Source: a virus
Strand: one strand, 5' to 3'
IMG/VR virus record: IMGVR_UViG_3300031991_000033
Length of the DNA stretch: 64,000 nucleotides
In this document: positions 12,813 through 58,223 of the stretch, piece after piece
Layout of the letters: each line of letters begins with the position of its first letter
Numbering within the stretch: the stretch's first letter is position 1
The notes under the pieces: model-generated
The model's input: the letters and a program-made list of their open reading frames with translations, nothing else
Database searches by the model: none
What the model was told of the DNA's origin: nothing
Position numbers and translations under genes: made by a program

Positions 12813-14993
12813 ATGAAAGAATACGGTTACTGCCGAGTGACAGCCGTCACTCCAAAAGTTGCAATCGGCAATGTTTCAGCGAATCTCGAAGAACACATTC
12901 GTGCCATCAACGAAGATAACTTCGGACTTACTGACGACGTTGAAGACTATGGTGTAGAAAGCGATGTTATCGTTTTCCCTGAACTCAGTCTTACCGGCTA
13001 TACTTGTGAAGATTTGTTCTTCCAGCGGTCTTTACAAGAACAAGCGTTGGATGCTTTGCGGCGTCTTGCAACTTTGAGTGAAAACTGGCGTTCGACTGTT
13101 ATCGTCGGACTTCCTGTCTTCATGCAAGAAGATGCCACGCTTCGTAACTGTGCGGCTGTGATCGGTAGTGGTCGTGTTCTTGGTATCGTCCCCAAAACGT
13201 TTCTGCCGAACTACCGTGAGTTCTACGAAGCACGTTGGTTCGCCCCAGCAAAGCCAACCGATCCACAGATGGTCAACATTGGCATTCCTGAACGAGTTCC
13301 GTTTGGTGCCGACTTGTTGTTTTCGCCCAAACGCTACGGTAACACAGCATGGACGTTTGGTGTTGAAATCTGCGAAGATGTTTGGTCACCGATTCCACCA
13401 AGCTCTTTTCAAGCACTTGCTGGTGCAACAGTGTTGTTCAATCTTTCGGCGAGCAACGAAACGATTGGCAAATCTGAATACCGTCGCAATTTTGTCAAAG
13501 GTCAAAGCGGTAAGCTGGTATCTGCATACATCTATTGCAGTGCGGGACCAACCGAATCGACCAAAGACCTTGTGTTTGGTGGGCACAACATTATCGGCGA
13601 AGGTGGCAGCATCGTTGCCGAAAGTGAAAAATTCGTGCGGCACACCCACACTTTGACTGCCGACATTGATGTTGACCGCCTATTGAGCGAACGTGCTTCG
13701 ATGCCGGGAACTTTTGCCGAATGTGCTACAAGAAACATGAAGCCGTTTCGGTTTGTTGAGTATCAGACCAATCCGTTGGTCGAGAAAAACCAAGAGTTGT
13801 ATCGACATGTTGAGGCTCACCCCTTTGTGCCAAAGAACCACACCGAATTGAAGGCTCGTTGTGCTGAAATCTTTGGCATCCAGACTGCCGGGCTTGCTAA
13901 ACGATTGGAGCGTGTATCGAAAGACACATACATTGGTGTGTCGGGCGGTCTTGATTCGACTTTAGCTTTGCTTGTCGCCTGTAAGACCTACGATATGCTC
14001 GGTATCGACCGCAAGCATTTGCACGGTATTACGATGCCCGGATTTGGTACGACCAACCGCACCAAGACCAACGCACGGATGTTGATGGATAATCTGGAAA
14101 TTAGCCAGAAGACCATCGACATTCGTGAGATGTGCATCCAAACTTGGCGTGATATGAAACACATTCCGTTCGGCGATGCGGAATGCGTTGTTGGTGGTAG
14201 AACAATGTTGTTTTCGGAGTGTCTACATCAACACACAGTTGTTGAAGGCTACGAAGAACGAAGAAGCATCCTTCCAGAAGAGTTGACTGTCAAACTCTTG
14301 GAAGAGTGTTTGAAATTCTTGCCGGATGGTGCTCAGGATTTGATCTTTGAGAACGTGCAAGCACGTGTACGCACTTTGATTCTCATGAGCCACGGTTTCG
14401 TGTTGGGAACCGGTGATTTGAGCGAGTTGGCTTTAGGTTGGTGTACGTACAACGGCGACCACATGTCGATGTACAACGTCAATTGCAGCATCCCAAAAAC
14501 GCTGGTCAAGTTCTTGGTTGAATACATTGCAGAACACGAAGTCGATAAGACTTGGGTGAACCGCAATGAAACATACCATTGTTTACTTGACATCGTGAAG
14601 ACTCCAATCTCGCCTGAGTTATTGCCAACCAAAGAAGGTGCAATTGCACAGGTCACCGAAGATAATGTGGGACCATACGAGTTGGTTGACTTCTTCTTGT
14701 ACAACTTTATGCGGTGTGGATTTGCACCGGGTAAGATCATGTTCTTGTCGCAGTTCGCAAACTTTGACAAGGACTACGAGTTGAACGAGATCGGCAAGTG
14801 GTTGAAGTTGTTCTACACAAGGTTCTTCACACAGCAGTTCAAACGAGACTGTGTGCCAGACGGACCAAAAGTTGGATCGGTAAGCCTCTCGCCTCGTGGA
14901 GATTGGCGTATGCCACCAGACGCCGACCGTGACGCTTGGTTGCATGAAGTTGATACATGGCTTGAAATTTACGGAGAATTGGAAGATGATTAA
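12813..14993 (+). CDS. nadE: Glutamine-dependent NAD+ synthetase (nitrilase-like glutaminase domain plus synthetase domain)
   Basis: VFPELSLTGY, PKTFLPNYREFYEARWF and EICEDVW (E-K-C triad); GVSGGLDSTLAL; ENVQAR; GTGDLSELALGWCTYNGDH; PKTL; PISPEL; KRDCVPDGPKVG...LSPRGDWRMP. Confidence 0.96.
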   Translation: MKEYGYCRVTAVTPKVAIGNVSANLEEHIRAINEDNFGLTDDVEDYGVESDVIVFPELSLTGYTCEDLFFQRSLQEQALDALRRLATLSENWRSTVIVGLPVFMQEDATLRNCAAVIGSGRVLGIVPKTFLPNYREFYEARWFAPAKPTDPQMVNIGIPERVPFGADLLFSPKRYGNTAWTFGVEICEDVWSPIPPSSFQALAGATVLFNLSASNETIGKSEYRRNFVKGQSGKLVSAYIYCSAGPTESTKDLVFGGHNIIGEGGSIVAESEKFVRHTHTLTADIDVDRLLSERASMPGTFAECATRNMKPFRFVEYQTNPLVEKNQELYRHVEAHPFVPKNHTELKARCAEIFGIQTAGLAKRLERVSKDTYIGVSGGLDSTLALLVACKTYDMLGIDRKHLHGITMPGFGTTNRTKTNARMLMDNLEISQKTIDIREMCIQTWRDMKHIPFGDAECVVGGRTMLFSECLHQHTVVEGYEERRSILPEELTVKLLEECLKFLPDGAQDLIFENVQARVRTLILMSHGFVLGTGDLSELALGWCTYNGDHMSMYNVNCSIPKTLVKFLVEYIAEHEVDKTWVNRNETYHCLLDIVKTPISPELLPTKEGAIAQVTEDNVGPYELVDFFLYNFMRCGFAPGKIMFLSQFANFDKDYELNEIGKWLKLFYTRFFTQQFKRDCVPDGPKVGSVSLSPRGDWRMPPDADRDAWLHEVDTWLEIYGELEDD

Positions 14994-16594: not shown

Positions 16595-18298
16595 ATGAAA
16601 TACAGCATTCGTGGCACCGGCAATGAAGTTACCCTCACGAATCAGCACTTTCTCGCCAAAGGCGGCGAGGGTTCGATTTTCGCCCGCCCACCGCTGGTTT
16701 ACAAAGTTTGTGAACCGGGCAAGATGATGCCGGATGGCAAAGTACAGGAGCTTGGCGTTCTCGATTCGCCTCGTGTCATTCGACCCAAAGATGTTCTCTT
16801 GGATTCCAAGAAGAAACCGGTTGGATACACGATGGACTATGTGGCAGACACCACCGTTCTCTGCCAACTATTCACCAAGGCGTTTCGTAAGCGAAACGGC
16901 ATCACGCACGATATGATTTGGGAACTTGTGCGTGATATGGAAAAAACAACTCGATTCATCCACAGCAAGGGCGTCTTGGTTGTGGATTACAATGAGTTGA
17001 ATTTTTTGGTGGACAAGAACTTCAAAGAAGTTTACTTCATTGACGTGAACAGCTATCAAACTCCGAGCTATCCCGCTACGGCGATCATGGAAAGCATTCG
17101 AGATCGCCACTGTGGAAATAAGTTCAGTGAACTTACGGATTGGTTCTCTTTTGGGATTGTTTCTTTCCAATTGATGATTGGAATTCACCCATTTAAGGGT
17201 AAGCACCCCAATTTCCTTGATCCGAAAACTTCGATGGATGAACGGATGAAGGCAAACATCTCTGTATTGAATCCTGCCGTGTCTTACCCACAAGGGGCAA
17301 CACAGCCCTTCAGCGTGATTCCTGATGCGTACATGCAGTGGTATAAAGCGATCTTTGATGGTGGCAAACGATTGCCTCCTCCGGGTGTTGGCAGCGGCGT
17401 TATCATCATTGCAACGCCGGTTGTTCAATCGGTGGGTGGTAGCAACTTGTTCACGGTCAACGAACTCTACAACTTTGGTGAAGAAATCATCAGCATCTTC
17501 ATGCATGTTGGGAAAGAGATCGTTGTTACCGACAAGTCTGTCTACGTGGACCGACACAAGATTCCTAACACAACGGCTGATCCAACGATGAAGATCGGAT
17601 TTACACCAACAACGTTGCAGCCAGTTGTGGCGTCAGCCGACATGCGTCAACTGAAGCTCAAGAATCTGACGACCGGTCAGGATTTGAAGTGTTCGTTGTA
17701 CGCTGACGACATCATGTCGCACGATGGTCGTTTGTACGTTCGCAATGGTTCACAAATTTTGGAAATCGAATTCACCGAGATCGGCAAGAATGTGCTCGTC
17801 TCTCCAAAGCATGTTGGCAACGTTTTGGAGCAAGCTGCCAAGGTGTATGATGGTGTGATCGTCGAGAACTTGTTTGATGCGATGTATTTCTCGATGTTCC
17901 CAGAGAGCGGAATCTGCCGTCAGATCGCCATCCGTGAATTGGATGGTTACAAGATCATCGACGCCAAGTATGAAGGCGGATTGTTGGTTGTGATCGGAGT
18001 CAACAACAAGACGGGTGAGTACGACCGATTTACTTTCTGGTTCGATAGCAAGTGGAAGTATCAATCGGTAGTCGTGAAAGACATCACGTACACCGGCTTG
18101 AACTTCACGGTGCTAGATAATGGCGTCGTCATCTTGATCAACGAAGAAGAAAAGGTGGAAATCTTCCGAGTCGCTGATCCAACCAAGAAAAAAGTTGTAG
18201 ACGACGACGCTATTGCGGCTGACATGAAGTTGACGAGTTCTGGTGCTAAAACTATGTTCACAAAAGGACAAAGTTTGTACAGCTTCAAGATGAACTAA
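16595..18298 (+). CDS. Ser/Thr protein kinase-like protein with a long C-terminal domain (TerY-P triad type)
   Basis: Gly loop LAKGGEGSIF, VYKV, catalytic loop HSKGVLVVDYNELNFLV, FIDVNS, TDWFSFGIV and GIHPFKG. Confidence 0.85.
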   Translation: MKYSIRGTGNEVTLTNQHFLAKGGEGSIFARPPLVYKVCEPGKMMPDGKVQELGVLDSPRVIRPKDVLLDSKKKPVGYTMDYVADTTVLCQLFTKAFRKRNGITHDMIWELVRDMEKTTRFIHSKGVLVVDYNELNFLVDKNFKEVYFIDVNSYQTPSYPATAIMESIRDRHCGNKFSELTDWFSFGIVSFQLMIGIHPFKGKHPNFLDPKTSMDERMKANISVLNPAVSYPQGATQPFSVIPDAYMQWYKAIFDGGKRLPPPGVGSGVIIIATPVVQSVGGSNLFTVNELYNFGEEIISIFMHVGKEIVVTDKSVYVDRHKIPNTTADPTMKIGFTPTTLQPVVASADMRQLKLKNLTTGQDLKCSLYADDIMSHDGRLYVRNGSQILEIEFTEIGKNVLVSPKHVGNVLEQAAKVYDGVIVENLFDAMYFSMFPESGICRQIAIRELDGYKIIDAKYEGGLLVVIGVNNKTGEYDRFTFWFDSKWKYQSVVVKDITYTGLNFTVLDNGVVILINEEEKVEIFRVADPTKKKVVDDDAIAADMKLTSSGAKTMFTKGQSLYSFKMN

Positions 18299-46635: not shown

Positions 46636-47778
46636 ATGAGGAATCAAGCTTACTGTTCACACCCGTATCGACGTATCAAAATCCAATCTGATGGTACTTG
46701 TGGTAACTGCTGTTTCATGCAGCGTGGAGCCATTGGTAACATTCTGGAATACGGATACGAGGCTGTTTGGAAAGGGATTGTCGCCAACTCTATTCGTGAG
46801 AAGGTTGGCGACAATCTTTTACCAACCGCCTGTCAAACAGCTTCTTGCCCTTACGCTCACCTTACTTCTGAAGAGCGACTGTGGCATATTGTGGATGTTT
46901 CTAACCCACATCCATTCCCTACGGAGATCGAACTCGATCTCCCAGACTCCCACTGCAATGTCGGTGGTCTGAGTCCAAACAAAAAGAACCCGGCTTGCTT
47001 GATGTGCGAACGTCATTTGTATGGCACGGTGCAAAAAGATCGTGTCAACGAAATCTGTGCGGTTATCAAACCGTACATTCAATACATCGATAAGTTTCAC
47101 ATTCAAGGCATTGCTGAGACATTCTGGAAAGACAAAATCTTTGAAGTGTTTGATCTCTTAGATATGAGGTCACACAAGGATCGTGTATTTGTAAGCACAA
47201 CCACGAACGCCACGATATTAGATCAGAAAAGACGTGTTGCGTTCTTAGAGTATCCATTCTCAAGTCTTACTTTTTCTTTGGATGCCGCCACAGCGAGCAC
47301 ATTCAAACTTATCCGTCGCTGGGATATGTTTGAGAAAGTCAAAGAGAATGTTAAAAATTACTGTCAAGAGAAGACGCCGAGTCAGGTTGCTGGCATCCAC
47401 AATAATCTGAACCTCTTAAACATCAATGAAGCCGAAGATATGGTTGTGTTGGCGAAAGAGTTAGGTGTGGATTTTGTAGACTTCAATCCAACTTATGGAA
47501 TACCTGAAATCTGTGTGAACGAACAAAATGTTCATCTCTTCGCCGAGGCTCAATCAAAGATTAAAGAAAAGGCGGCTGAGATCGAGATGAAAGTAAGCTT
47601 CATGCGTGATTTGACGCTAGGATTGAATGTGCCTAGTGAACCAAAACTCATCCAAATCACGGTCGATCAAGTTGTCGATTTGGCAGAGAAGCTTTGGGTT
47701 GATTCAGAAGATTTGATGGCGATTACCGATAAAAACCCAGACATGGTAAAGGTGATCGGCTTCAAACCATTCTTATAG
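46636..47778 (+). CDS. Radical SAM protein with an N-terminal SPASM/twitch-like domain
   Basis: CSHPY..IKIQSDG...CC; C-x13-CxxC (CNVGG...ACLMCER); TTNAT; FSLDAATASTFKLIRR. Confidence 0.8.
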   Translation: MRNQAYCSHPYRRIKIQSDGTCGNCCFMQRGAIGNILEYGYEAVWKGIVANSIREKVGDNLLPTACQTASCPYAHLTSEERLWHIVDVSNPHPFPTEIELDLPDSHCNVGGLSPNKKNPACLMCERHLYGTVQKDRVNEICAVIKPYIQYIDKFHIQGIAETFWKDKIFEVFDLLDMRSHKDRVFVSTTTNATILDQKRRVAFLEYPFSSLTFSLDAATASTFKLIRRWDMFEKVKENVKNYCQEKTPSQVAGIHNNLNLLNINEAEDMVVLAKELGVDFVDFNPTYGIPEICVNEQNVHLFAEAQSKIKEKAAEIEMKVSFMRDLTLGLNVPSEPKLIQITVDQVVDLAEKLWVDSEDLMAITDKNPDMVKVIGFKPFL

Positions 47779-48303
47779 TTTTTGAGCAACCAAAAAGAAG
47801 CTATACTTATCGTCACCCAAGTCTTTGCCATGATCAATTAGCTCGTACAACTTTGGCAAATGTTCTCCTCGAAAATTCTTACCTTCGCCACAGAAAGCAC
47901 GTTTGAAGAACATCATGAATTGGGCGTACCTGTAATCTCTCATGTGTTCCAAGTTATCACCATTATTGTAATGGTCGCCATCAGGTAGATAAAGAATGAG
48001 CTTGCCGCCCGGCTTGAGTAACTTCGTCCACTCTATGAGTGTAGCATAATCGTCTTCCATGTGTTCAAGAACATGTGATGAGAACACGGTATCGGCGGTG
48101 TTGTACATGTGGTCTTCGAATTTAGATAGACCATCTTTCAACATCCCGACACACTCTGTTGATCGACCATCAATACCAACCGCATCTGGTGTGACCTTGT
48201 GTGTGCCGCAACCAATATCAAGTACACGACCTTGTACGTGATCTTTGATCTTGGAATATATCTTTTCTGTTTCGCTACTGTATGCCACCAGATTTCCTAA
48301 CAA
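47773..48303 (-). CDS. Class I SAM-dependent methyltransferase
   Basis: VLDIGCG, VFSSHVLEHMED and LLKPGGKLILYLP. Confidence 0.9.
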   Translation of the reverse strand: MLGNLVAYSSETEKIYSKIKDHVQGRVLDIGCGTHKVTPDAVGIDGRSTECVGMLKDGLSKFEDHMYNTADTVFSSHVLEHMEDDYATLIEWTKLLKPGGKLILYLPDGDHYNNGDNLEHMRDYRYAQFMMFFKRAFCGEGKNFRGEHLPKLYELIDHGKDLGDDKYSFFLVAQKL

Positions 48304-49273
48304 TTACTTCTATGCTAAATTCGCCAACAGGGTGTGCGTTCACAGGAAGTGAATGATCATAGCCATCAGACAAAACCTTGAGGCTTAAGATTTCACCATC
48401 TGGAATCGCTTTATTTAGCAAACCTTTTAGAGAGATTGTGCAAGGAGATTCTGATTCTTCAGGTAGCCAAAACCATTTGTGTTCACCGTTCCATTGGCTT
48501 GGCAGAGTCTTACGCTTCTCATATAGGTCTCTATGAGGCACCATGATAATCAAATGACCACCCGGCTTTAGAATCCGCCACCAGTTTTCAATCGCTTTCT
48601 TGGGGTTGTTGATGTGTTCCAAAATATGGCTGGCATACACTGTTTGGAATGACTCGTCTGGCACACCTTCCATCAATTCGGCATCGCCGTCGCCAAATGC
48701 AATATCCCAACGTCTGAAAGTTTGATTCAAACAATCGTATTGACATCCGATGTCAATGCCCGGTGCGTTAGCTGGTGCATATTTTTCAAACCAACCCTCA
48801 GCAACTCGACGTTCATGGGCTTTCCAAGTTTCACCCAATCGCCGAGTACGATGAAAATCGGCATCATTACGACGATCAACAGGTGGTACACATTCCCACT
48901 TGATCTCGTGATCAAACATCAATGTGCGACGAATAGCATCCCAATTTGGCAATCCACCAAATTGTCGGTCGTCAATATAGACAGTGGCATAAGGTTTACG
49001 ACCACCATTGTCTCTGAAGTCCAAGTCTTTGGGTGATTCGTTTACACCATCAAACTCCAAGCCGTTTTCTTTACAGAACTCGACTGCATCTTTGAGATAT
49101 TGCTTATTGATGTTGTAACCTTCATCTTCACGACACGTGAAGAGGATCAACTTCCAACCAGCGTTTTTGAGTTCTTTTAGGGTTTCAAGAGCACCGGGGA
49201 GTGGTTTTCCAACTTTTGGAAAAGCATGTTCAACGATTGTGCCATCAAAATCTACACAGGCAATCCGTCCCAT
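48275..49273 (-). CDS. HAD-family hydrolase fused to a class I methyltransferase
   Basis: N-terminal CVDFDGT, LFTCR, KPYATVYIDDR; C-terminal GIDIGC, YASHILEH, ILKPGGHLIIMVP. Confidence 0.85.
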   Translation of the reverse strand: MGRIACVDFDGTIVEHAFPKVGKPLPGALETLKELKNAGWKLILFTCREDEGYNINKQYLKDAVEFCKENGLEFDGVNESPKDLDFRDNGGRKPYATVYIDDRQFGGLPNWDAIRRTLMFDHEIKWECVPPVDRRNDADFHRTRRLGETWKAHERRVAEGWFEKYAPANAPGIDIGCQYDCLNQTFRRWDIAFGDGDAELMEGVPDESFQTVYASHILEHINNPKKAIENWWRILKPGGHLIIMVPHRDLYEKRKTLPSQWNGEHKWFWLPEESESPCTISLKGLLNKAIPDGEILSLKVLSDGYDHSLPVNAHPVGEFSIEVIVRKSGGIQ

Positions 49274-49458
49274 CCGTGATGCTCCTTCATATAATGTGCA
49301 AGTTCAACTGATTGTTTGATACTGAGTGATGCGATGCGGTCGCCTAGTTCTTGGATTTCATCTGGGAAATCGCTTGCTAAAGCGACTTTCGTTGGCGGTT
49401 TGTTTGGAGGTCCAGCCGGGGCGGTTTGTGGTTCAAGAACGAGGGTATTCATAGTCAA
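49252..49458 (-). CDS. Ribosomal protein bL12 (L7/L12) N-terminal domain only
   Basis: DEIQELGDRIASLSIKQSVELAHYMKEHHG resembles the bL12 N-terminal helical hairpin (planctomycete-like ELGDKIANLTLKQAKELSDYL...HG, from memory); no hinge or C-terminal domain. Confidence 0.7.
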   Translation of the reverse strand: MTMNTLVLEPQTAPAGPPNKPPTKVALASDFPDEIQELGDRIASLSIKQSVELAHYMKEHHGWDGLPV

Positions 49459-49888
49459 CTACTACCTTTGTGTGATCGCCGGGGTCTTTATTCCATCTCA
49501 AAAACAAAAGACCACTATCGGGGCATATTAGACCCTCAGCAACCTCCACGTCAAGATGGTTTTCTGCAAGACGAGTTGCAATGAACGCTCCTTTGGGATC
49601 GAAAACAAAGTCGCAAACTTTTACCCAATCTTTGTCATTACTACCGTCATGCCAGAAACATTTACCGACCAGAGTGCCTACGTTCATCGGAGCATTTTCT
49701 AATGCCCCGTAACAACGCCAAACACCAGTTTCGGATCGTTTCTCTTCGTTGCTTGCAAGCAACGCCATATAGTGAAATTCATCGTGGTACTGATATTCAC
49801 GCAAGAATGCGATCAGGTCTTGAACCTTAGAAGCATCTACGAAGTTGTGAGATACTAAATCGCAAGCTAGTTTATCGGTGTTAGGCAT
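49433..49888 (-). CDS. Hypothetical protein
   Basis: 151-aa ORF; GGAG RBS. Confidence 0.65.
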   Translation of the reverse strand: MPNTDKLACDLVSHNFVDASKVQDLIAFLREYQYHDEFHYMALLASNEEKRSETGVWRCYGALENAPMNVGTLVGKCFWHDGSNDKDWVKVCDFVFDPKGAFIATRLAENHLDVEVAEGLICPDSGLLFLRWNKDPGDHTKVVVDYEYPRS

Positions 49889-50450: not shown

Positions 50451-51842
50451 TTAAAACTTTGGTAAGAAATGAACAGTGCCTTCCAAGTCCTGTTGTGTTT
50501 GCTCAAGACTTGTAAGAAGTTCCTGAAAATCGTCGGAAGTGATACTGCCCTCAAGTCCCGCATTTACAAAATTTGTTTCGATCTGATCGACCAAACGTTT
50601 AATTTCTTCGCAACGAGCGGCAACTTCGTCGGCAGCTTCCTTGAAGTTCTGTTCGTTTTCAAAGCCATCTCTGGTATGTTCTTCCATCCAGAGTTTATCG
50701 TCATCGACGGTTGTGTCGTCATCTTCATCTACATCAAGGGTTTCTTGTATCACATTGCTCGCCTTACTTTGAGAAACTTGTCTGTCGAAGTGACCCCAGC
50801 GATCTTTCCAATCATGTGCCCAAGGTCCGCTGACTTGGTATCCAATATCAGGATGGAAAAATGTTGAAGAGGACGGTGGTGCGTAAACAGTTTTGGCTGG
50901 AACTTGGTTTGGAGCGTTTCCTTTAGCATCCAAATCAGTAACGATTGAGAGGTTGATTTTCTTGGGTTGAATTGGTCTTTTCTTCCCGCTTGCCGTCCAG
51001 TCTTTTGAAACAGATTTGTCTGTTTTGATTGCAACTCTGTGGAAATTGGAATCTGTTACAATTTGATTTTCTTGATCAATTTTGAAACCCCAGACCTCAT
51101 TTACAGGTAGCTCGGCAAGTTTTTGAGTTCCGATTTCTTTTGAGAAGTTACATTCAGAAACGGCTTGGTGCCAAATTTCGGTTTCTGAGAAGAAGAAAAC
51201 TTGACCGAGTGTTTCTCGTAGGTCAGCCACCCATAAAGGGCGTTTCTTATTACGAAACAGCATAAGGGTTCTTGAGCCATCAACGTGCAACTCGCCGATC
51301 ATGGCGGCACAAGAACCTTGACGAACGACCGACCAGAACTCGTGTACAGACGCAAGTCGTTCTTGCATGTATTGTGGCGTGTTTGGGATTAACAGTGGCG
51401 GTTCAACAATTGCATTTTCATACATTCTCAACAGGATTTCTGAGTCACAGTCTGTTTGTGTTTCATACTTATCTGTAAGGAATGATGCTTCATGAATCTT
51501 CCCGTTGTGAATAACGCCGATACGTTTATCTTCTGACACGAAGGGATGATTATTTTCGTTGTTGCGAGCGTGCCCGACACCGGGCGATGTGCGGCGAGCA
51601 TGTACAAGAAGAAGGTTAGGGTTCAAATTTTGTACTTTTGCCCAAATCGGAATCTGCATAAATTCGCTGCTCTTGATTGGTGCTTTGTGATAGATGACTT
51701 TGGGTTTCTCTTTTGATTCAAGACCCCAAATACCAGCGGCGTCCGTGCCTCGACTTTCAAGCCGAGCAAAGATGCGAGTGGTTAAGTCGTGTGTTACTTT
51801 CGGCTTTTTAGCTTTGCCGATATATCCTGCGATTCCGCACAT
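50451..51842 (-). CDS. Class II (Ntn) glutamine amidotransferase with an acidic C-terminal extension
   Basis: N-terminal MCGIAG, RGTDAAG, HARRTS, NNHPF, HNGKI and DCDSE. Confidence 0.9.
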   Translation of the reverse strand: MCGIAGYIGKAKKPKVTHDLTTRIFARLESRGTDAAGIWGLESKEKPKVIYHKAPIKSSEFMQIPIWAKVQNLNPNLLLVHARRTSPGVGHARNNENNHPFVSEDKRIGVIHNGKIHEASFLTDKYETQTDCDSEILLRMYENAIVEPPLLIPNTPQYMQERLASVHEFWSVVRQGSCAAMIGELHVDGSRTLMLFRNKKRPLWVADLRETLGQVFFFSETEIWHQAVSECNFSKEIGTQKLAELPVNEVWGFKIDQENQIVTDSNFHRVAIKTDKSVSKDWTASGKKRPIQPKKINLSIVTDLDAKGNAPNQVPAKTVYAPPSSSTFFHPDIGYQVSGPWAHDWKDRWGHFDRQVSQSKASNVIQETLDVDEDDDTTVDDDKLWMEEHTRDGFENEQNFKEAADEVAARCEEIKRLVDQIETNFVNAGLEGSITSDDFQELLTSLEQTQQDLEGTVHFLPKF

Positions 51843-51921
51843 AGTTGTTCCCTTACTGTAAGATTCGATTGTAGCAATTTTCGATCCCAAAAACAATAGA
51901 TACTTTAAGACCGGAGGTTGG

Positions 51922-55618: not shown

Positions 55619-55964
55619 TTTCTTGTTCCTTCAATTTTTGTCCATACTTTGTAAGGATTGGTTGGGTTTCTAAATTGGGTGGATTTGGACAGTAAAAATA
55701 CCCAACTTCAGGTACAGTAAGGTCACGAATCATCTGCAAAAAACCAATTGTTTCATCCAAATCGACCATCTTTAGACCCGACTCAAGCTTTTCTGTAAGC
55801 TTGTCTATCGTTCGGTCCAAAACTTTCTGAATTGTCGGCACCACTTCTTCCTCTTTCATCGGGTGTTGAACACCACAAAACTTGAGGACGACAGGACCGT
55901 TTTCTTCTTTGTCCTCATACACTCTGAAATCGCCAATCTTCTCTTTCATTCGAAGTACCATCAA
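55611..55964 (-). CDS. Hypothetical protein
   Basis: 117-aa ORF coupled to the carbamoyltransferase stop. Confidence 0.65.
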   Translation of the reverse strand: MMVLRMKEKIGDFRVYEDKEENGPVVLKFCGVQHPMKEEEVVPTIQKVLDRTIDKLTEKLESGLKMVDLDETIGFLQMIRDLTVPEVGYFYCPNPPNLETQPILTKYGQKLKEQENE

Positions 55965-57409
55965 AGCACCTTTACGTTGTAAGCACGCTCAAAGTCTCGT
56001 GCGTCTTGTTCGTCGTCAACCATCGGCATACCACGAATGTTTAAGCTGGTGTTCAGTAACATCGGACACCCGGTTGACTCATAGAATCGCACCAGTAAAT
56101 CGTAATATCCGGGGTTTTGTTCCCTTGTAATAGTCTGAATCCTTGAAGTGCCATCCACATGCACAATCGCTGGAAACATTTCTGGGAATTTACAGCGAAC
56201 AGTGTACTGCATGTATGGTGAGTCTTGCAAGCCTATTTCTTTAAGGTCGAAATACTGGTTTGCAAATTGTTTAAGAACAACGGGAGCGAACGGTCTAAAT
56301 TTCTGTCGCCTCTTAATCTCATTGACCTTATTCTTCATCTCCAAAGTCCGAGGATCAGCTAAGAGCGATCTGTTTCCGAAAGCTCTTGGACCGAACTCAG
56401 CACGACCATTTGCGACACCAACGATGTTGCCCTTGAGTAGTTCTTCATGTGTTTGTTCCACTGGATATGGGCGGTCGATATTGTTGCCGAGATACGGACC
56501 CTTCCAATCTAAGCGAACACCGGCATGGTATGCTGCACAACCCAGCGAAGAGCCTGCATCGCCGGGATTAGGCATGATCCAAACTTTGTCGAAGTATTTG
56601 TGCAACAAACGATTTGCAACACAGTTCAATGCCACGCCGCCCATGAATACAAGGTTGTCAGATAGACCAGTGTATTTGGAAAGAATGGAATCGAGACAGT
56701 ATTCAGTCACTCTTTGAATGCTGGCAGCTAAGTCTTCTTTCTTAGCGTGCGGCATCCAATTACCAATTCCCTTATGAACATTTCGACGAAGAGCAAATGT
56801 TGGACTTTTCAAAAAGTCACGAACAATCTCGGTATCGTAGATGGGTTCACCATAAGGTGCCATACCCATCAAAATGTATTCTTCCTCATTGGGGATCAAC
56901 CCACAACGTTGCGTGAACGCAGTGTATAACATGCCCAATGAATGAGGGTAATTGACCTCATCGTGAAGATCAATTTTTGTACCATCACCATGCCAAACAG
57001 TAATTGTGTTTTCTTCGCCAAGTGAGTCGATACAAAGAATACAGGCGTCTTCAAATGGACTGGTAAGAAAGCCAGCGGCAGCGTGTGAGAGATGATGTTT
57101 GACGGAAACAACCTCTTGTTTGATTCCAAACTTACGCATATAGCGGTTTGGCCAACGGTCGAGGTTAAAAAGATATTGCCATTGGAAATTTTTGAACTGT
57201 CGCCACTTCTTCAGCCAACGATCCTCGAACCATACAACAGAATCGGGCGACCCATATTCAAGAGCCGCCCGAATGATTTTGTCGTTGAGATGTGGGTCGT
57301 TCTTGACTTTCGAATACCGCTCTGCGTGTGCTGCAAAAAGGATTTGATTTCCATCGATTACAGATATCGATGCATCATGCGTTAATGCACTTATGCCCCA
57401 TGTGATCAT
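55961..57409 (-). CDS. O-carbamoyltransferase (NodU/CmcH/TobZ family)
   Basis: HDAS, ERYSKVKND, HHLSHAA, SLGMLY, EEYILMGMAPYG, GGVALNC, PGDAGSSLG, EFGPRAFGNRS, KRRQKFRPFAP, VHVDGTSRIQT and LLNTSLN; GGAG RBS before ATG 57409. Confidence 0.95.
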   Translation of the reverse strand: MITWGISALTHDASISVIDGNQILFAAHAERYSKVKNDPHLNDKIIRAALEYGSPDSVVWFEDRWLKKWRQFKNFQWQYLFNLDRWPNRYMRKFGIKQEVVSVKHHLSHAAAGFLTSPFEDACILCIDSLGEENTITVWHGDGTKIDLHDEVNYPHSLGMLYTAFTQRCGLIPNEEEYILMGMAPYGEPIYDTEIVRDFLKSPTFALRRNVHKGIGNWMPHAKKEDLAASIQRVTEYCLDSILSKYTGLSDNLVFMGGVALNCVANRLLHKYFDKVWIMPNPGDAGSSLGCAAYHAGVRLDWKGPYLGNNIDRPYPVEQTHEELLKGNIVGVANGRAEFGPRAFGNRSLLADPRTLEMKNKVNEIKRRQKFRPFAPVVLKQFANQYFDLKEIGLQDSPYMQYTVRCKFPEMFPAIVHVDGTSRIQTITREQNPGYYDLLVRFYESTGCPMLLNTSLNIRGMPMVDDEQDARDFERAYNVKVL

Positions 57410-57413
57410 GTTC

Positions 57414-58223
57414 CTACTCCACAGGAATTTTCTCTTTTTGGCGAGCCTCAGCCCATTCCTTAGAAAACTTAGGGTGATTCCAAGTAATTCTCGTGATGTC
57501 AGATCGTTCTTTGAATTTTGTCCAATCAAACTTACCTGTTGTGTTTTTACATTCAACAACACGCTGATCGGGTGTGGCACCTTTCCCATGAAACCAGCTT
57601 TGCATTGAGATCACTTTGTCACACATGATTTGACTATCACGAACAAGACCATAATGCCAAATTTGTATTCCGTCTACACGGTTTGTGCAGCAAGTGTCTC
57701 CGCTTACGCCAAGGGACTCGGCATCTCCGACAGCATTCCAATGTTTGAGTCCAAGTCTGTTGACGATATCACTACAAGGTTTGCGATCCTGTGGCAAATC
57801 AAAACGCAGATAGTGGTTCATGTCACCAAACAAATTGATACGTCGGCACTGGAATGACTCATAGCCATACTTCTGTGCGATATTGACTGCCTTTTTGATC
57901 TCCAAGCGGCTATCTTCGTGGACAACCTCGTCTGCTTGAAGCATAAAATGCCAGTCGGTATTGAGTAGTTGTTTGGCTTGGTTGGCTAGAATGGAGAGGC
58001 GTTCGTAGTTTTGAGCACACTCCCATTGGGCACCAGCGGCAACTCTTAGGTTAGGGTGTTGTTCTTTGCAAGCGTGCATTAAGTCGAGAGTTTCATCATC
58101 GCTTTGTGCATCAAGAACAACAACCTCATCACACACATAACACAAACTTGCAATTGCTTCTTTGAGGCAATAGTCAAATTTCACTGCATTGTGTGCGAAG
58201 ATGCTTCCGCCTAAGCTTGGCAT
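57414..58223 (-). CDS. GT2-family glycosyltransferase
   Basis: CLKEAIASL...DEVVVLDAQSDDET and DWHFMLQADEVVH; GGAG RBS before ATG 58223. Confidence 0.85.
   Translation of the reverse strand: MPSLGGSIFAHNAVKFDYCLKEAIASLCYVCDEVVVLDAQSDDETLDLMHACKEQHPNLRVAAGAQWECAQNYERLSILANQAKQLLNTDWHFMLQADEVVHEDSRLEIKKAVNIAQKYGYESFQCRRINLFGDMNHYLRFDLPQDRKPCSDIVNRLGLKHWNAVGDAESLGVSGDTCCTNRVDGIQIWHYGLVRDSQIMCDKVISMQSWFHGKGATPDQRVVECKNTTGKFDWTKFKERSDITRITWNHPKFSKEWAEARQKEKIPVE

Follow-up and report, generated by a model that had tools for sequence, protein, structure and literature searches.

Gene order and signals at the locus

The window, a stretch of 64,000 nucleotides from the IMG/VR virus record IMGVR_UViG_3300031991_000033, carries a small open reading frame on its minus strand at 49252-49458, which is translated into LTMNTLVLEPQTAPAGPPNKPPTKVALASDFPDEIQELGDRIASLSIKQSVELAHYMKEHHGWDGLPV. 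The first-pass annotation had placed a frame at this position, and the peptide quoted from it was found exactly in the minus-strand translation. Two start codons are available, TTG at 49458 for a protein of 68 residues or ATG at 49452 for one of 66 residues, and the 66-residue form is identical to a protein on record, P0002. The frame ends with the stop codon TAG (49254-49252). The AAGGT element (49468-49464) precedes the TTG at 49458 with a spacing of 5 nt, and the orthologue in a second phage contig, L002, shows the equally spaced arrangement of GAGGT, 5 nt and ATG. The small gene lies on the same strand as its neighbours, has a Shine-Dalgarno-like site and is joined to the neighbouring genes by overlaps (Table 1).

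Table 1. Positions of genes, signals and protein segments around the bL12-like gene, in window coordinates
Feature	Position	Strand	Basis and remarks
bL12-like gene, N-domain only	49252..49458	-	open reading frame, translation, identical 66-residue protein on record, relatives, syntenic orthologue
Phage-specific N-terminal extension	49372..49458	-	residues 1-29 of the 68-residue form; predicted coil
bL12 N-domain-like two-helix hairpin	49273..49356	-	residues 35-62 of the 68-residue form; Pfam match, AF2 model, superposition
Shine-Dalgarno-like AAGGT	49464..49468	-	inside the 3' end of the upstream gene; read from the sequence
Shine-Dalgarno AAGGAG of the downstream gene	49282..49287	-	embedded in the M-K-E-H codons of the small gene; read from the sequence
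Downstream gene: HAD-like phosphatase domain fused to a SAM-dependent methyltransferase, 332 residues	48275..49273	-	Pfam and PHROG matches
Upstream overlapping gene, 151 residues	49433..49888	-	without family match

An overlap with the ATG of the next gene (49273-49271) had been claimed as well and was confirmed, with a length of 22 nt. The embedded arrangement of the downstream Shine-Dalgarno sequence is also conserved in L002. The embedded AAGGAG and the 22-nt overlap suggest that the small gene and the downstream HAD-methyltransferase gene may be translationally coupled. The overlap is conserved in the two phages, which was a ground for considering a frameshift fusion. Such a fusion of the small protein with the HAD-methyltransferase was set aside: no slippery site was evident, and the downstream genes of other family members are unrelated.

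The HAD-methyltransferase is 83% identical in L002. Pfam and PHROG searches with the upstream 151-residue protein gave no match, and when the translations were compared, its place in L002 was found to be taken by an unrelated gene of 131 residues. The gene neighbours differ at every locus of the family examined, and the HAD-methyltransferase is context and no conserved partner of the short proteins. A conserved methyltransferase partner was also considered and rejected, the methyltransferase beside another family member sharing just the generic SAM-binding motif. In cellular Planctomycetota, bL12 loci have uL10 upstream. The window gene, flanked by the 151-residue gene and the HAD-methyltransferase fusion, is not found in an rplJ-rplL-rpoB neighbourhood, and uL10 (PF00466) had no match in the virus record. 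The window encodes a tail sheath; this and the gene block syntenic with another phage contig support the earlier claim that the small gene belongs to a phage.

Domain identity of the small protein

In bL12, the N-domain is the part that attaches to uL10, and the translational GTPases are bound by the C-terminal domain (review PMC10931766). The profile search proposed with the annotation did return the N-domain model Ribosomal_L12_N (PF16320) for the window protein (E = 0.0056), but with 16.8 bits, below the gathering cut-off of 25 bits. When 21 members of the short protein family described below were scanned with PF16320, 12 matched at E ≤ 0.1, the best at E = 7.6e-8. The family profile recognised the single bL12 gene of Planctomycetota genomes with 22-49 bits, all but one at 33 bits or more, with one match per genome and E-values down to 5e-12 per genome. 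The window protein alone scored 27-37 bits against the 25 best of 69 Planctomycetota bL12 proteins.

The hairpin region aligns with positions 2-29 of the Ribosomal_L12_N profile and with ELGDKIAxLTLKQAKELSDYLKxxHG of Planctomycetota bL12. The consensus of the short family tracks cellular bL12 column by column between the EF/F-P motif and ...YLK.xHG. The phage protein and the N-domain (PF16320) of cellular Planctomycetota bL12 are thus alike in their two-helix hairpin and in the common consensus (A/T)x(E/D)F..e.(K/R)ELGD(K/R)IAxLTxKQAxELxxYLKxxHG.

The AF2 model of the window protein (66-residue numbering) has helices at 31-41 and 45-59 with a pLDDT of about 90. It was superimposed on the N-domain of T. 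maritima L12 (1dd3_C) over 32 of 32 residues at 1.8 Å, and it also aligned with the N-terminal domain of E. coli L7 (1rqt) and with 6gaw_CL. Among the top 8 structural matches in 48,161 PDB representatives, 3 were bL12 N-domains. The Z-scores of the fold matches are low (2.5-3.0), as is to be expected for a domain of this size. A Foldseek search of the PDB gave nothing at E ≤ 0.001. The predicted hairpin fold is therefore consistent with a bL12 N-domain and is not proof of one. Taken with the PF16320 scan of the family, the profile matches and the consensus, the superposition supports the proposed homology to the N-terminal domain of bL12 only.

The absence of an Ala/Gly hinge and of a C-terminal domain, read earlier from the sequence, was borne out. 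The protein stops 7 residues past ...HHG, the point at which the bL12 N-domain ends in the alignment, and the model of the bL12 C-terminal domain (PF00542) had no match anywhere in the 157,792-bp virus record.

A likeness to planctomycete bL12 had been put forward with the annotation and is now supported: 118 of the 120 genome matches to the family motif are named Planctomycetota, as are all named full-length matches. When the PDB was searched with the family profile, no bacterial bL12 chain was obtained at E ≤ 1. None of 185,579 species genomes contained the strict phage motif FPD[DE]IxxLGDRI, and no short paralogue was seen in the 62 matching genomes out of 301 sampled Planctomycetota genomes. 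From the likeness of this one domain only, we infer a Planctomycetota host.

The family of short phage proteins and its N-terminal extension

A phmmer search of 1.8 billion representatives with the window protein returned 28 relatives at E < 1e-3, and a search with the family profile matched 329 proteins. The short family within these amounts to about 45-50 clusters. It was delimited by a length of 46-89 residues, an N-terminal Pro-Pro, the pattern F-P-D-D-I-x-E-L-G-D-R-I-A-x-L-T...E-L-x-x-Y-L and an end at helix 2 or shortly after it. In the window protein the two prolines are P15 and P16; it reads FPDEIQELGDRIASLS...ELAHYM along the pattern and ends 12 residues after Tyr-Met (Y54-M55). It scored 92 bits against the family profile, being itself among the sequences from which the profile was built. 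Longer, fused forms were not found in a word-index search. For the small protein, PHROGs and NCBIfam gave no meaningful match, and tblastn matches in 50,697 isolate phage records were confined to the low-complexity PPNKPP stretch, with E of at least 0.2. IMG/VR, searched with the two neighbouring proteins and with a family alignment, returned no relatives.

The contigs that carry the members are of phage or phage-like type and reach 634 kb. Some adjoin capsid, cement and head-tail genes, and further members lie on contigs of 177, 282 and 634 kb that are composed of small hypothetical ORFs. The four contigs with P0003 were uninformative for microdiversity because their DNA is identical. This short bL12-N family on jumbo and huge phage contigs is previously undescribed. 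Full-length phage relatives of bL12 exist as well, P0012 and P0027, and P0012 has the C-terminal domain. In a tree built on only 36 columns, P0012 grouped with a short member, and the window-type protein fell outside the single clade of cellular sequences. Cellular proteins that carry signal peptides of the lipoprotein type (P0004, P0007 and P0023) also have L12_N-like repeats.

The N-terminal extension contains PPNKPP, encoded at 49393-49410, and hardly any family member departs from its first Pro-Pro (49405-49410). Across 49 short members the column conservation is 100% at P15 and 98% at P16 (66-residue numbering), and the Pro-Pro motif was absent from the N-termini of 66 cellular Planctomycetota bL12 proteins. 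In the AF2 model the extension is coil with a pLDDT of 67-75. In the sequences compared, the Pro-Pro extension of about 25 residues is a feature of the phage version that is not found in cellular bL12. The phage protein further differs from cellular Planctomycetota bL12 in having neither hinge nor C-terminal domain and in not lying beside rplJ or rpoB. The annotation had called the protein a reduced bL12. This holds for the N-domain-only form, but instead of a one-off truncation we found an established family with an added, nearly invariant Pro-Pro.

The window and L002 share a syntenic block with the order GATase, PDDEXK_15, x, bL12-like gene, HAD-methyltransferase and methyltransferase. The L002 orthologue keeps the short form, with 52% amino-acid identity over a global codon alignment. 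Between the two genes pS was 0.67-0.76 (saturated) and pN 0.25-0.28, giving a pN/pS of 0.32-0.41, and this comparison supports purifying selection on the short gene. Since the short form is kept at 52% identity despite saturated synonymous sites, the gene is neither a decaying fragment nor a chance ORF. Whether the relatives are likewise N-domain-only and selected had been raised with the annotation, and the short clusters and the pN/pS answer this with yes.

That the gene is what is left of a decaying full-length phage bL12, or a non-coding spacer open by chance, is hardly credible. Although P0012 and P0027 are full-length and the Pfam score of the window protein itself is sub-threshold, this reading is already contradicted by the recurrence of the same short form in the 45-50 or so clusters on many contigs, by invariant residues along the whole protein and by the retention of the short form in L002 at a pN/pS of 0.3-0.4. 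Moreover, no remains of a C-terminal domain follow downstream, where a different, conserved gene begins. On the sequence evidence, the gene is confirmed as a genuine conserved phage gene for a stand-alone Planctomycetota-type bL12 N-domain.

Possible action on the ribosomal stalk

Phage-encoded ribosomal proteins are already known, and where bL12 of isolate phages has been described in detail, it has the C-terminal domain, which binds the factors. The examples that Mizuno et al. 2019 listed in their Table 1 and tested were recognised by the Ribosomal_L12 model of the C-terminal domain. They retain the uL11, EF-G and EF-Tu contact residues and are often embedded in large proteins (PMC6375957). 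They resemble the window family as phage-borne pieces of the same ribosomal protein, but the window family is the complementary half, without factor-contact residues and without a PF00542 match. As a precedent, which the annotation had made of it, this work stands for the existence of phage bL12 proteins; for the N-domain form it is weak because the Table 1 proteins are the opposite, C-terminal half. Al-Shayeb et al. 2020 list L7/L12 genes for huge phages without a domain-level description (PMC7162821). Both studies share the idea of phages tampering with the exchangeable stalk.

The N-terminal extensions of phage bS21 have been proposed to aid competitive binding to the ribosome (Al-Shayeb et al. 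2020, PMC7162821). In both cases a small exchangeable ribosomal protein is copied with a phage-specific N-terminal extension. However, bS21 is another protein of the other subunit, and its extensions are basic and aromatic (RNA-binding), whereas that of bL12-N is proline-rich; bS21 is also kept whole in phages, while the bL12-N family misses half of the protein. Laboratory N-terminal fragments of E. coli L7/L12 dimerise and bind L10 without being able to sustain factor-dependent GTPase activity. We propose the same behaviour for the phage protein, although the fragments are artificial and the phage family is naturally selected and has its own motif.

The functions put forward with the annotation, dominant-negative occupation of the stalk, a retuning of translation or a shield against toxins, are hypothetical. 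Considering the sequence comparisons as a whole, the best explanation, to which we give a probability of about 0.5, is that the phage protein acts as a decoy or remodeller of the stalk on Planctomycetota uL10 or host bL12. During infection of a Planctomycetota host it would pair in the manner of bL12, with another copy of itself or with host bL12, and these dimers would take bL12 sites on the C-terminal helix of uL10. The stalk positions so occupied would be without the C-terminal domain that recruits IF2, EF-Tu, EF-G and RF3. Factor recruitment would be remodelled, possibly together with the free uL10-bL12 complex that autoregulates rplJL. Through the Pro-Pro extension the phage copy could make an additional contact, with which it would compete for binding or reach another partner. 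When the complex of the C-terminal 57 residues of uL10 from a stand-in host (Stieleria) with two copies of the phage protein was predicted, the score was 0.02, the mark being 0.32, which weighs neither for nor against binding. A translation theme is visible in the virus record, with 13 tRNAs and an RRF-like gene, and the contig of another member has RRF and SmpB. A purely inhibitory decoy sits awkwardly with this, because a phage with tRNAs and RRF seems invested in translation.

The protein might instead act off the ribosome on free uL10, altering the uL10-(bL12)n repressor of the rplJL(-rpoBC) mRNA or blocking stalk assembly on new host ribosomes. In keeping with this, rplJL is repressed autogenously by the L10(L12)4 complex (review PMC10931766), and the uL10-binding domain is retained in the phage protein. 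An advantage for the phage is not apparent, however, and we regard this explanation as unlikely. To our knowledge, the regulation of rplJL in Planctomycetota is uncharacterised.

Since the invariant Pro-Pro is not a feature of bL12, the key activity could lie in the extension. One possible explanation, less probable than action on the stalk, is a non-ribosomal adaptor, in which the hairpin would be a mere dimerisation module and the Pro-Pro peptide would bind another host or phage protein off the ribosome. The conservation of the two prolines equals that of the hairpin core, they are missing from cellular bL12, and no conserved neighbouring gene links the family to translation. The repeats in P0004, P0007 and P0023 indicate that the domain was co-opted outside the ribosome at least once and that the hairpin can serve there, since these cellular proteins are secreted and lipoprotein-like. 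However, a dimeriser needs only the buried residues, whereas exposed and buried residues of cellular bL12 are both kept (ELGDxIA, T, Q/E-A, EL, YL). The grouping of the full-length P0012 with a short member also ties the family to a working bL12, and translation genes co-occur on two member contigs.

The two activities may be combined in a stalk-anchored bait, which we think unlikely. Here the N-domain would replace host bL12 on uL10, and the Pro-Pro peptide would be a tethered ligand in place of the C-terminal domain. The peptide would draw a factor of the phage or of the host to the GTPase-associated centre, or keep one out, so that ribosomes would be reprogrammed and not simply slowed. If true, this would be a new viral way to rewire the factor-recruiting arm of the bacterial ribosome.

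We know of very few described phages of Planctomycetota, and the Planctomycetota-like bL12 domain may be a practical host-prediction marker for large uncultivated phages of this phylum. What is new here is the mirror image of the known phage bL12, with the anchor domain only and a new motif. Should the protein dock on uL10, the phages would possess a natural ligand, dominant-negative or remodelling, of the one ribosomal protein that is present in several copies. It would then also help in studying how initiation and elongation are tuned by the number of bL12 C-terminal domains.

Relationship of the small protein to the bL12 N-domain

Residues 35-62 of the window protein matched positions 2-29 of the Pfam model Ribosomal_L12_N (PF16320) with 16.8 bits (E=0.0056; curated cut-off 25), and this sub-threshold, single-sequence match is by itself only a lead. 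When 1.8 billion representatives were searched exhaustively with phmmer, 28 matched at E<1e-3. Most of these are 46-89 aa long and show the pattern ...PPxxPP...FPDDIxELGDRIAxLTxxQAxELxxYL. Another two (P0012 and P0027) are full-length bL12 with N- and C-domains, and three contain two tandem domain copies behind a lipoprotein-type signal. PF16320 was matched by 12 of 21 short members (best E=7.6e-8).

The profile of the short family matched exactly one site per matching Planctomycetota genome, the bL12 gene (130-200 aa), with 22-49 bits and at least 33 in all except one. For the window protein alone, the scores against the top 25 among 69 bL12 sequences from Planctomycetota were 27-37 bits. In the PDB, the profile matched no bacterial bL12 chain at E<=1, only mitochondrial bL12m (E=0.27). 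When aligned, the phage consensus (AadFPDeIrELGDRIA.LT.kQA.EL..YLk) and the cellular consensus (tAT.EFSAetKELGDKIAgLTLKQAKELSDYLKdeYGIEPAAGG...) match column by column, and the phage proteins end where the cellular hinge starts. Neither a bL12 C-terminal domain (PF00542) nor uL10 (PF00466) was found in the 157,792-bp phage record, and the lack of hinge and C-terminal domain in the small protein agrees with the first-pass annotation.

The AlphaFold2 model from the family alignment (mean pLDDT 80) consists of a coil followed by helices 31-41 and 45-59. A Foldseek search of the PDB found nothing at E<=0.001. In a structural scan against 48,161 chains, bL12 N-domains ranked 1, 3 and 8 (bL12m 6gaw_CL, T. 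maritima 1dd3_C and E. coli 1rqt), and 32 of 32 residues superposed on 1dd3_C at 1.8 A. The Z-scores for this predicted model were low (2.5-3.0), as expected since the domain is a 30-residue hairpin. Taken together, the relatives, the family profile, the consensus and the fold comparisons back the Pfam lead and make the bL12-N identity solid.

Gene layout, neighbourhood and selection

The ORF was present as first described and lies on the minus strand. It can start at TTG 49458 (68 aa), with AAGGT 5 nt upstream, or at ATG 49452, giving the 66-aa form already on record (P0002). The closest relative, P0003, is encoded on the separate phage contig L002, where GAGGT-5 nt-ATG has the identical spacing to AAGGT-TTG. 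With its stop at 49433, the upstream gene overlaps the small gene by its 3' end, and the sequence confirmed the reported overlap of the small gene with the downstream gene (ATG 49273), 22 nt long. The AAGGAG Shine-Dalgarno sequence of the downstream gene lies within codons of the small gene. All three genes share one strand, a layout typical of translationally coupled phage genes.

Features of the window and of the 157,792-bp phage record (G000)
Feature	Location	Strand	Remark
Glutamine-dependent NAD synthase	window 12813-14993	+	
Protein-kinase-like protein	window 16595-18298	+	
Radical SAM/SPASM protein	window 46636-47778	+	
Second methyltransferase	window 47773-48303	-	
HAD-like phosphatase-methyltransferase fusion	window 48275-49273	-	phosphatase residues ~3-118; SAM-dependent methyltransferase ~168-260
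bL12-N-like ORF	window 49252-49458	-	translation LTMNTLVLEPQTAPAGPPNKPPTKVALASDFPDEIQELGDRIASLSIKQSVELAHYMKEHHGWDGLPV*
Upstream gene	window 49433-49888	-	151 aa, no family match; unrelated to L002:7613-8008 (131 aa, no family match)
Class-II amidotransferase-like protein	window 50451-51896	-	long acidic tail
Carbamoyltransferase	window 55961-57589	-	
13 clustered tRNA genes	G000:C1:143717-152676		7 Leu, 3 Ser, 2 Phe, 1 Tyr; outside window
Ribosome-recycling-factor-like gene	G000:C1:156086-156542 = L160 1474-1963		PF01765, 60.7 bits; outside window

L002 has the gene order of the window (amidotransferase, PDDEXK_15, unrelated small gene, bL12-N gene, HAD-methyltransferase, methyltransferase) and also the 22-nt overlap. 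Since the genes just upstream of the bL12-N gene are unrelated in these otherwise syntenic phages, this position looks like a gene-replacement hotspot. Synonymous sites are saturated between the two (pS 0.67-0.76). The non-synonymous divergence of the small gene was 0.25-0.28, corresponding to a pN/pS of 0.32-0.41 for this single orthologue pair with saturated dS, and the flanking genes gave 0.13-0.30. The two proteins share 52% identity in the global codon alignment and 56-57% over the stretches aligned by phmmer and MAFFT. Because neutral sequence at such divergence would be unrecognisable, this one pair indicates that the small gene is selected.

Searched with the family profile, 5.8 billion proteins gave 329 matches, headed by about 45 short clusters (54-83 aa, 54-92 bits). 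Full-length bL12 ranked below them with at most 52 bits, and those with organism names were all from Planctomycetota (Phycisphaerales, Thermostilla, Gemmataceae, Planctomycetaceae). In 49 short members, P15, P16, D31, I33, G37, D38, I40, L43, L51 and Y54 (66-aa numbering) are invariant or nearly so. The relatives are thus also N-domain-only, rather than full-length proteins beside one decaying copy, and a non-functional remnant is highly improbable.

The phage record has a CheckV completeness of 31%, and a 207,526-bp contig carries the same small protein. Among the products encoded in the window are a tail sheath, ribonucleotide reductase, CTP synthase, NAD synthase, a carbamoyltransferase and a kinase-like protein. 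Close to the small gene are a class-II glutamine amidotransferase-like protein, a PDDEXK_15 nuclease, the HAD-like phosphatase-methyltransferase fusion, a second methyltransferase and a radical SAM/SPASM protein. Auxiliary enzymes are densely packed in the window, and the radical SAM/SPASM protein, second methyltransferase, amidotransferase-like protein, carbamoyltransferase, kinase-like protein and NAD synthase jointly suggest nucleotide, sugar or DNA-modification chemistry. The record is that of a large, myovirus-like phage rich in auxiliary genes. For the HAD-methyltransferase gene, the best PHROG (1238) bears the name 'phosphoheptose isomerase', which does not seem to suit a HAD-type domain. 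IMG/VR calls the record a 'provirus'. Since neither integrase nor host flank was found near the bL12-N gene in its available part, and relatives lie on 177-634-kb phage-like contigs, the label may have arisen as an artefact when a jumbo phage was trimmed. The ribosome-recycling-factor (RRF)-like gene is broken into ORFs of 57 and 116 aa in two overlapping frames, and a frameshift, a fault in the assembly or programmed recoding could account for this.

Occurrence, host and history of the family

All ten member loci inspected look viral. Outside G000 and record L010, this status was judged from gene content rather than by a formal classifier. P0018 adjoins capsid, cement and head-tail joining genes. 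The contigs of P0010, P0043 and P0049 (177,649, 282,465 and 633,754 bp) have long runs of small co-directional, mostly unannotated ORFs with dispersed HNH, NUDIX, NADAR, PTH2 and YqeY domains. The P0025 contig (L156) also encodes SmpB and an intact 159-aa RRF, in contrast to the split gene of G000. The full-length P0012 has a non-ribosomal, phage-like neighbourhood. The strict phage motif had no match in 185,579 species genomes. No short paralogue was found in 62 matching Planctomycetota genomes (301 sampled), which is weak evidence since the filter scored just 20 candidates per genome.

Three cellular-looking proteins of 112-139 aa (P0004, P0007 and P0023; L155:5001-5396) have a lipoprotein-type signal, ending in …LTIGC, …LVGC and …LLAGC, and behind it two bL12-N-like repeats in tandem. 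P0007 adjoins a thioredoxin gene, and its 83-kb contig further encodes an M48 peptidase and an AbiE toxin-antitoxin pair. In such proteins, the ribosomal stalk domain appears to be co-opted outside the cytoplasm.

The species genomes were scanned with a DNA pattern from the consensus motif GDxIAxLT[LIVM]x[EQ]AxELxxYL, which gave at least 120 matching places. All matches listed are ordinary bL12 genes (133-138 aa), and 118 of 120 are named Planctomycetota (Pirellulales, Planctomycetales, Phycisphaerae, Thermoguttaceae, Gemmataceae), which bears out the resemblance to planctomycete bL12 proposed in the first-pass annotation. The other two are from an unnamed bacterium and a Nitrosopumilus MAG (L056, CAXQOB010000225.1). 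Since the latter bL12 closely resembles that of Rubripirellula (Planctomycetota), L056 is probably a mis-binned contig in this archaeal MAG. The similarity of this one domain points indirectly to a Planctomycetota host.

In a tree on 36 alignable columns, a supported branch (96/89) separated all 64 cellular sequences from all phage forms, and the full-length phage P0012 paired with the short P0018 (100/87). This fits a loss of the C-domain inside a phage bL12 lineage rather than repeated recent capture from hosts, but with so few columns the tree is only indicative.

The Pro-Pro extension and the proposed role

The 25-30 residues preceding the hairpin, overlooked in the first-pass annotation, carry a Pro-Pro as invariant as the hairpin core in the 49 short members, mostly embedded in (S)PPN(K)PP. 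The full-length phage bL12 P0027 has a comparable LPPTVPP, whereas the leader of cellular Planctomycetota bL12 is shorter, acidic and free of prolines. The extension is more than a linker.

Phage bL12 has been reported by Mizuno et al. 2019 (PMC6375957). The isolate-phage proteins in their Table 1 were detected via the Ribosomal_L12 (C-terminal domain) model, retain the residues contacting uL11, EF-G and EF-Tu and often form part of large polypeptides, whereas the present family has the N-domain only. In Al-Shayeb et al. 2020 (PMC7162821), L7/L12 is listed for huge phages with no description of its domains, and N-terminal extensions of phage bS21 are noted. Since phage ribosomal proteins are published and a full-text search of an incomplete literature collection found no description of an N-domain-only phage bL12 family, we rate it as a new form within a known kind.

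Dimerisation and uL10 docking reside in the bL12 N-domain, as also stated in the Pfam description of PF16320. In the ribosome, bL12 dimers on uL10 form the stalk, and their C-terminal domain is the common binding site of IF2, EF-Tu, EF-G and RF3 (PMC10931766). Since the small protein keeps the N-domain consensus residues and nothing else, the most plausible reading, with a probability of about 0.5, is that it acts as a bL12 N-domain, pairs with itself or host bL12 and sits on uL10. However, the main activity of the protein could instead reside in the Pro-Pro motif. A non-ribosomal adaptor role is doubtful, though secreted cellular proteins with L12_N-like repeats exist. The L10(L12)4 complex also represses rplJL translation (PMC10931766), and an action on free uL10 and this autoregulation is less likely still. 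The phage tRNAs and RRF suggest promotion of translation rather than a block, which fits poorly with a purely inhibitory role. Docked on uL10 as an N-domain, the phage protein would create stalk positions without the factor-recruiting head, and the conserved extension may supply a competitive advantage or a new contact.
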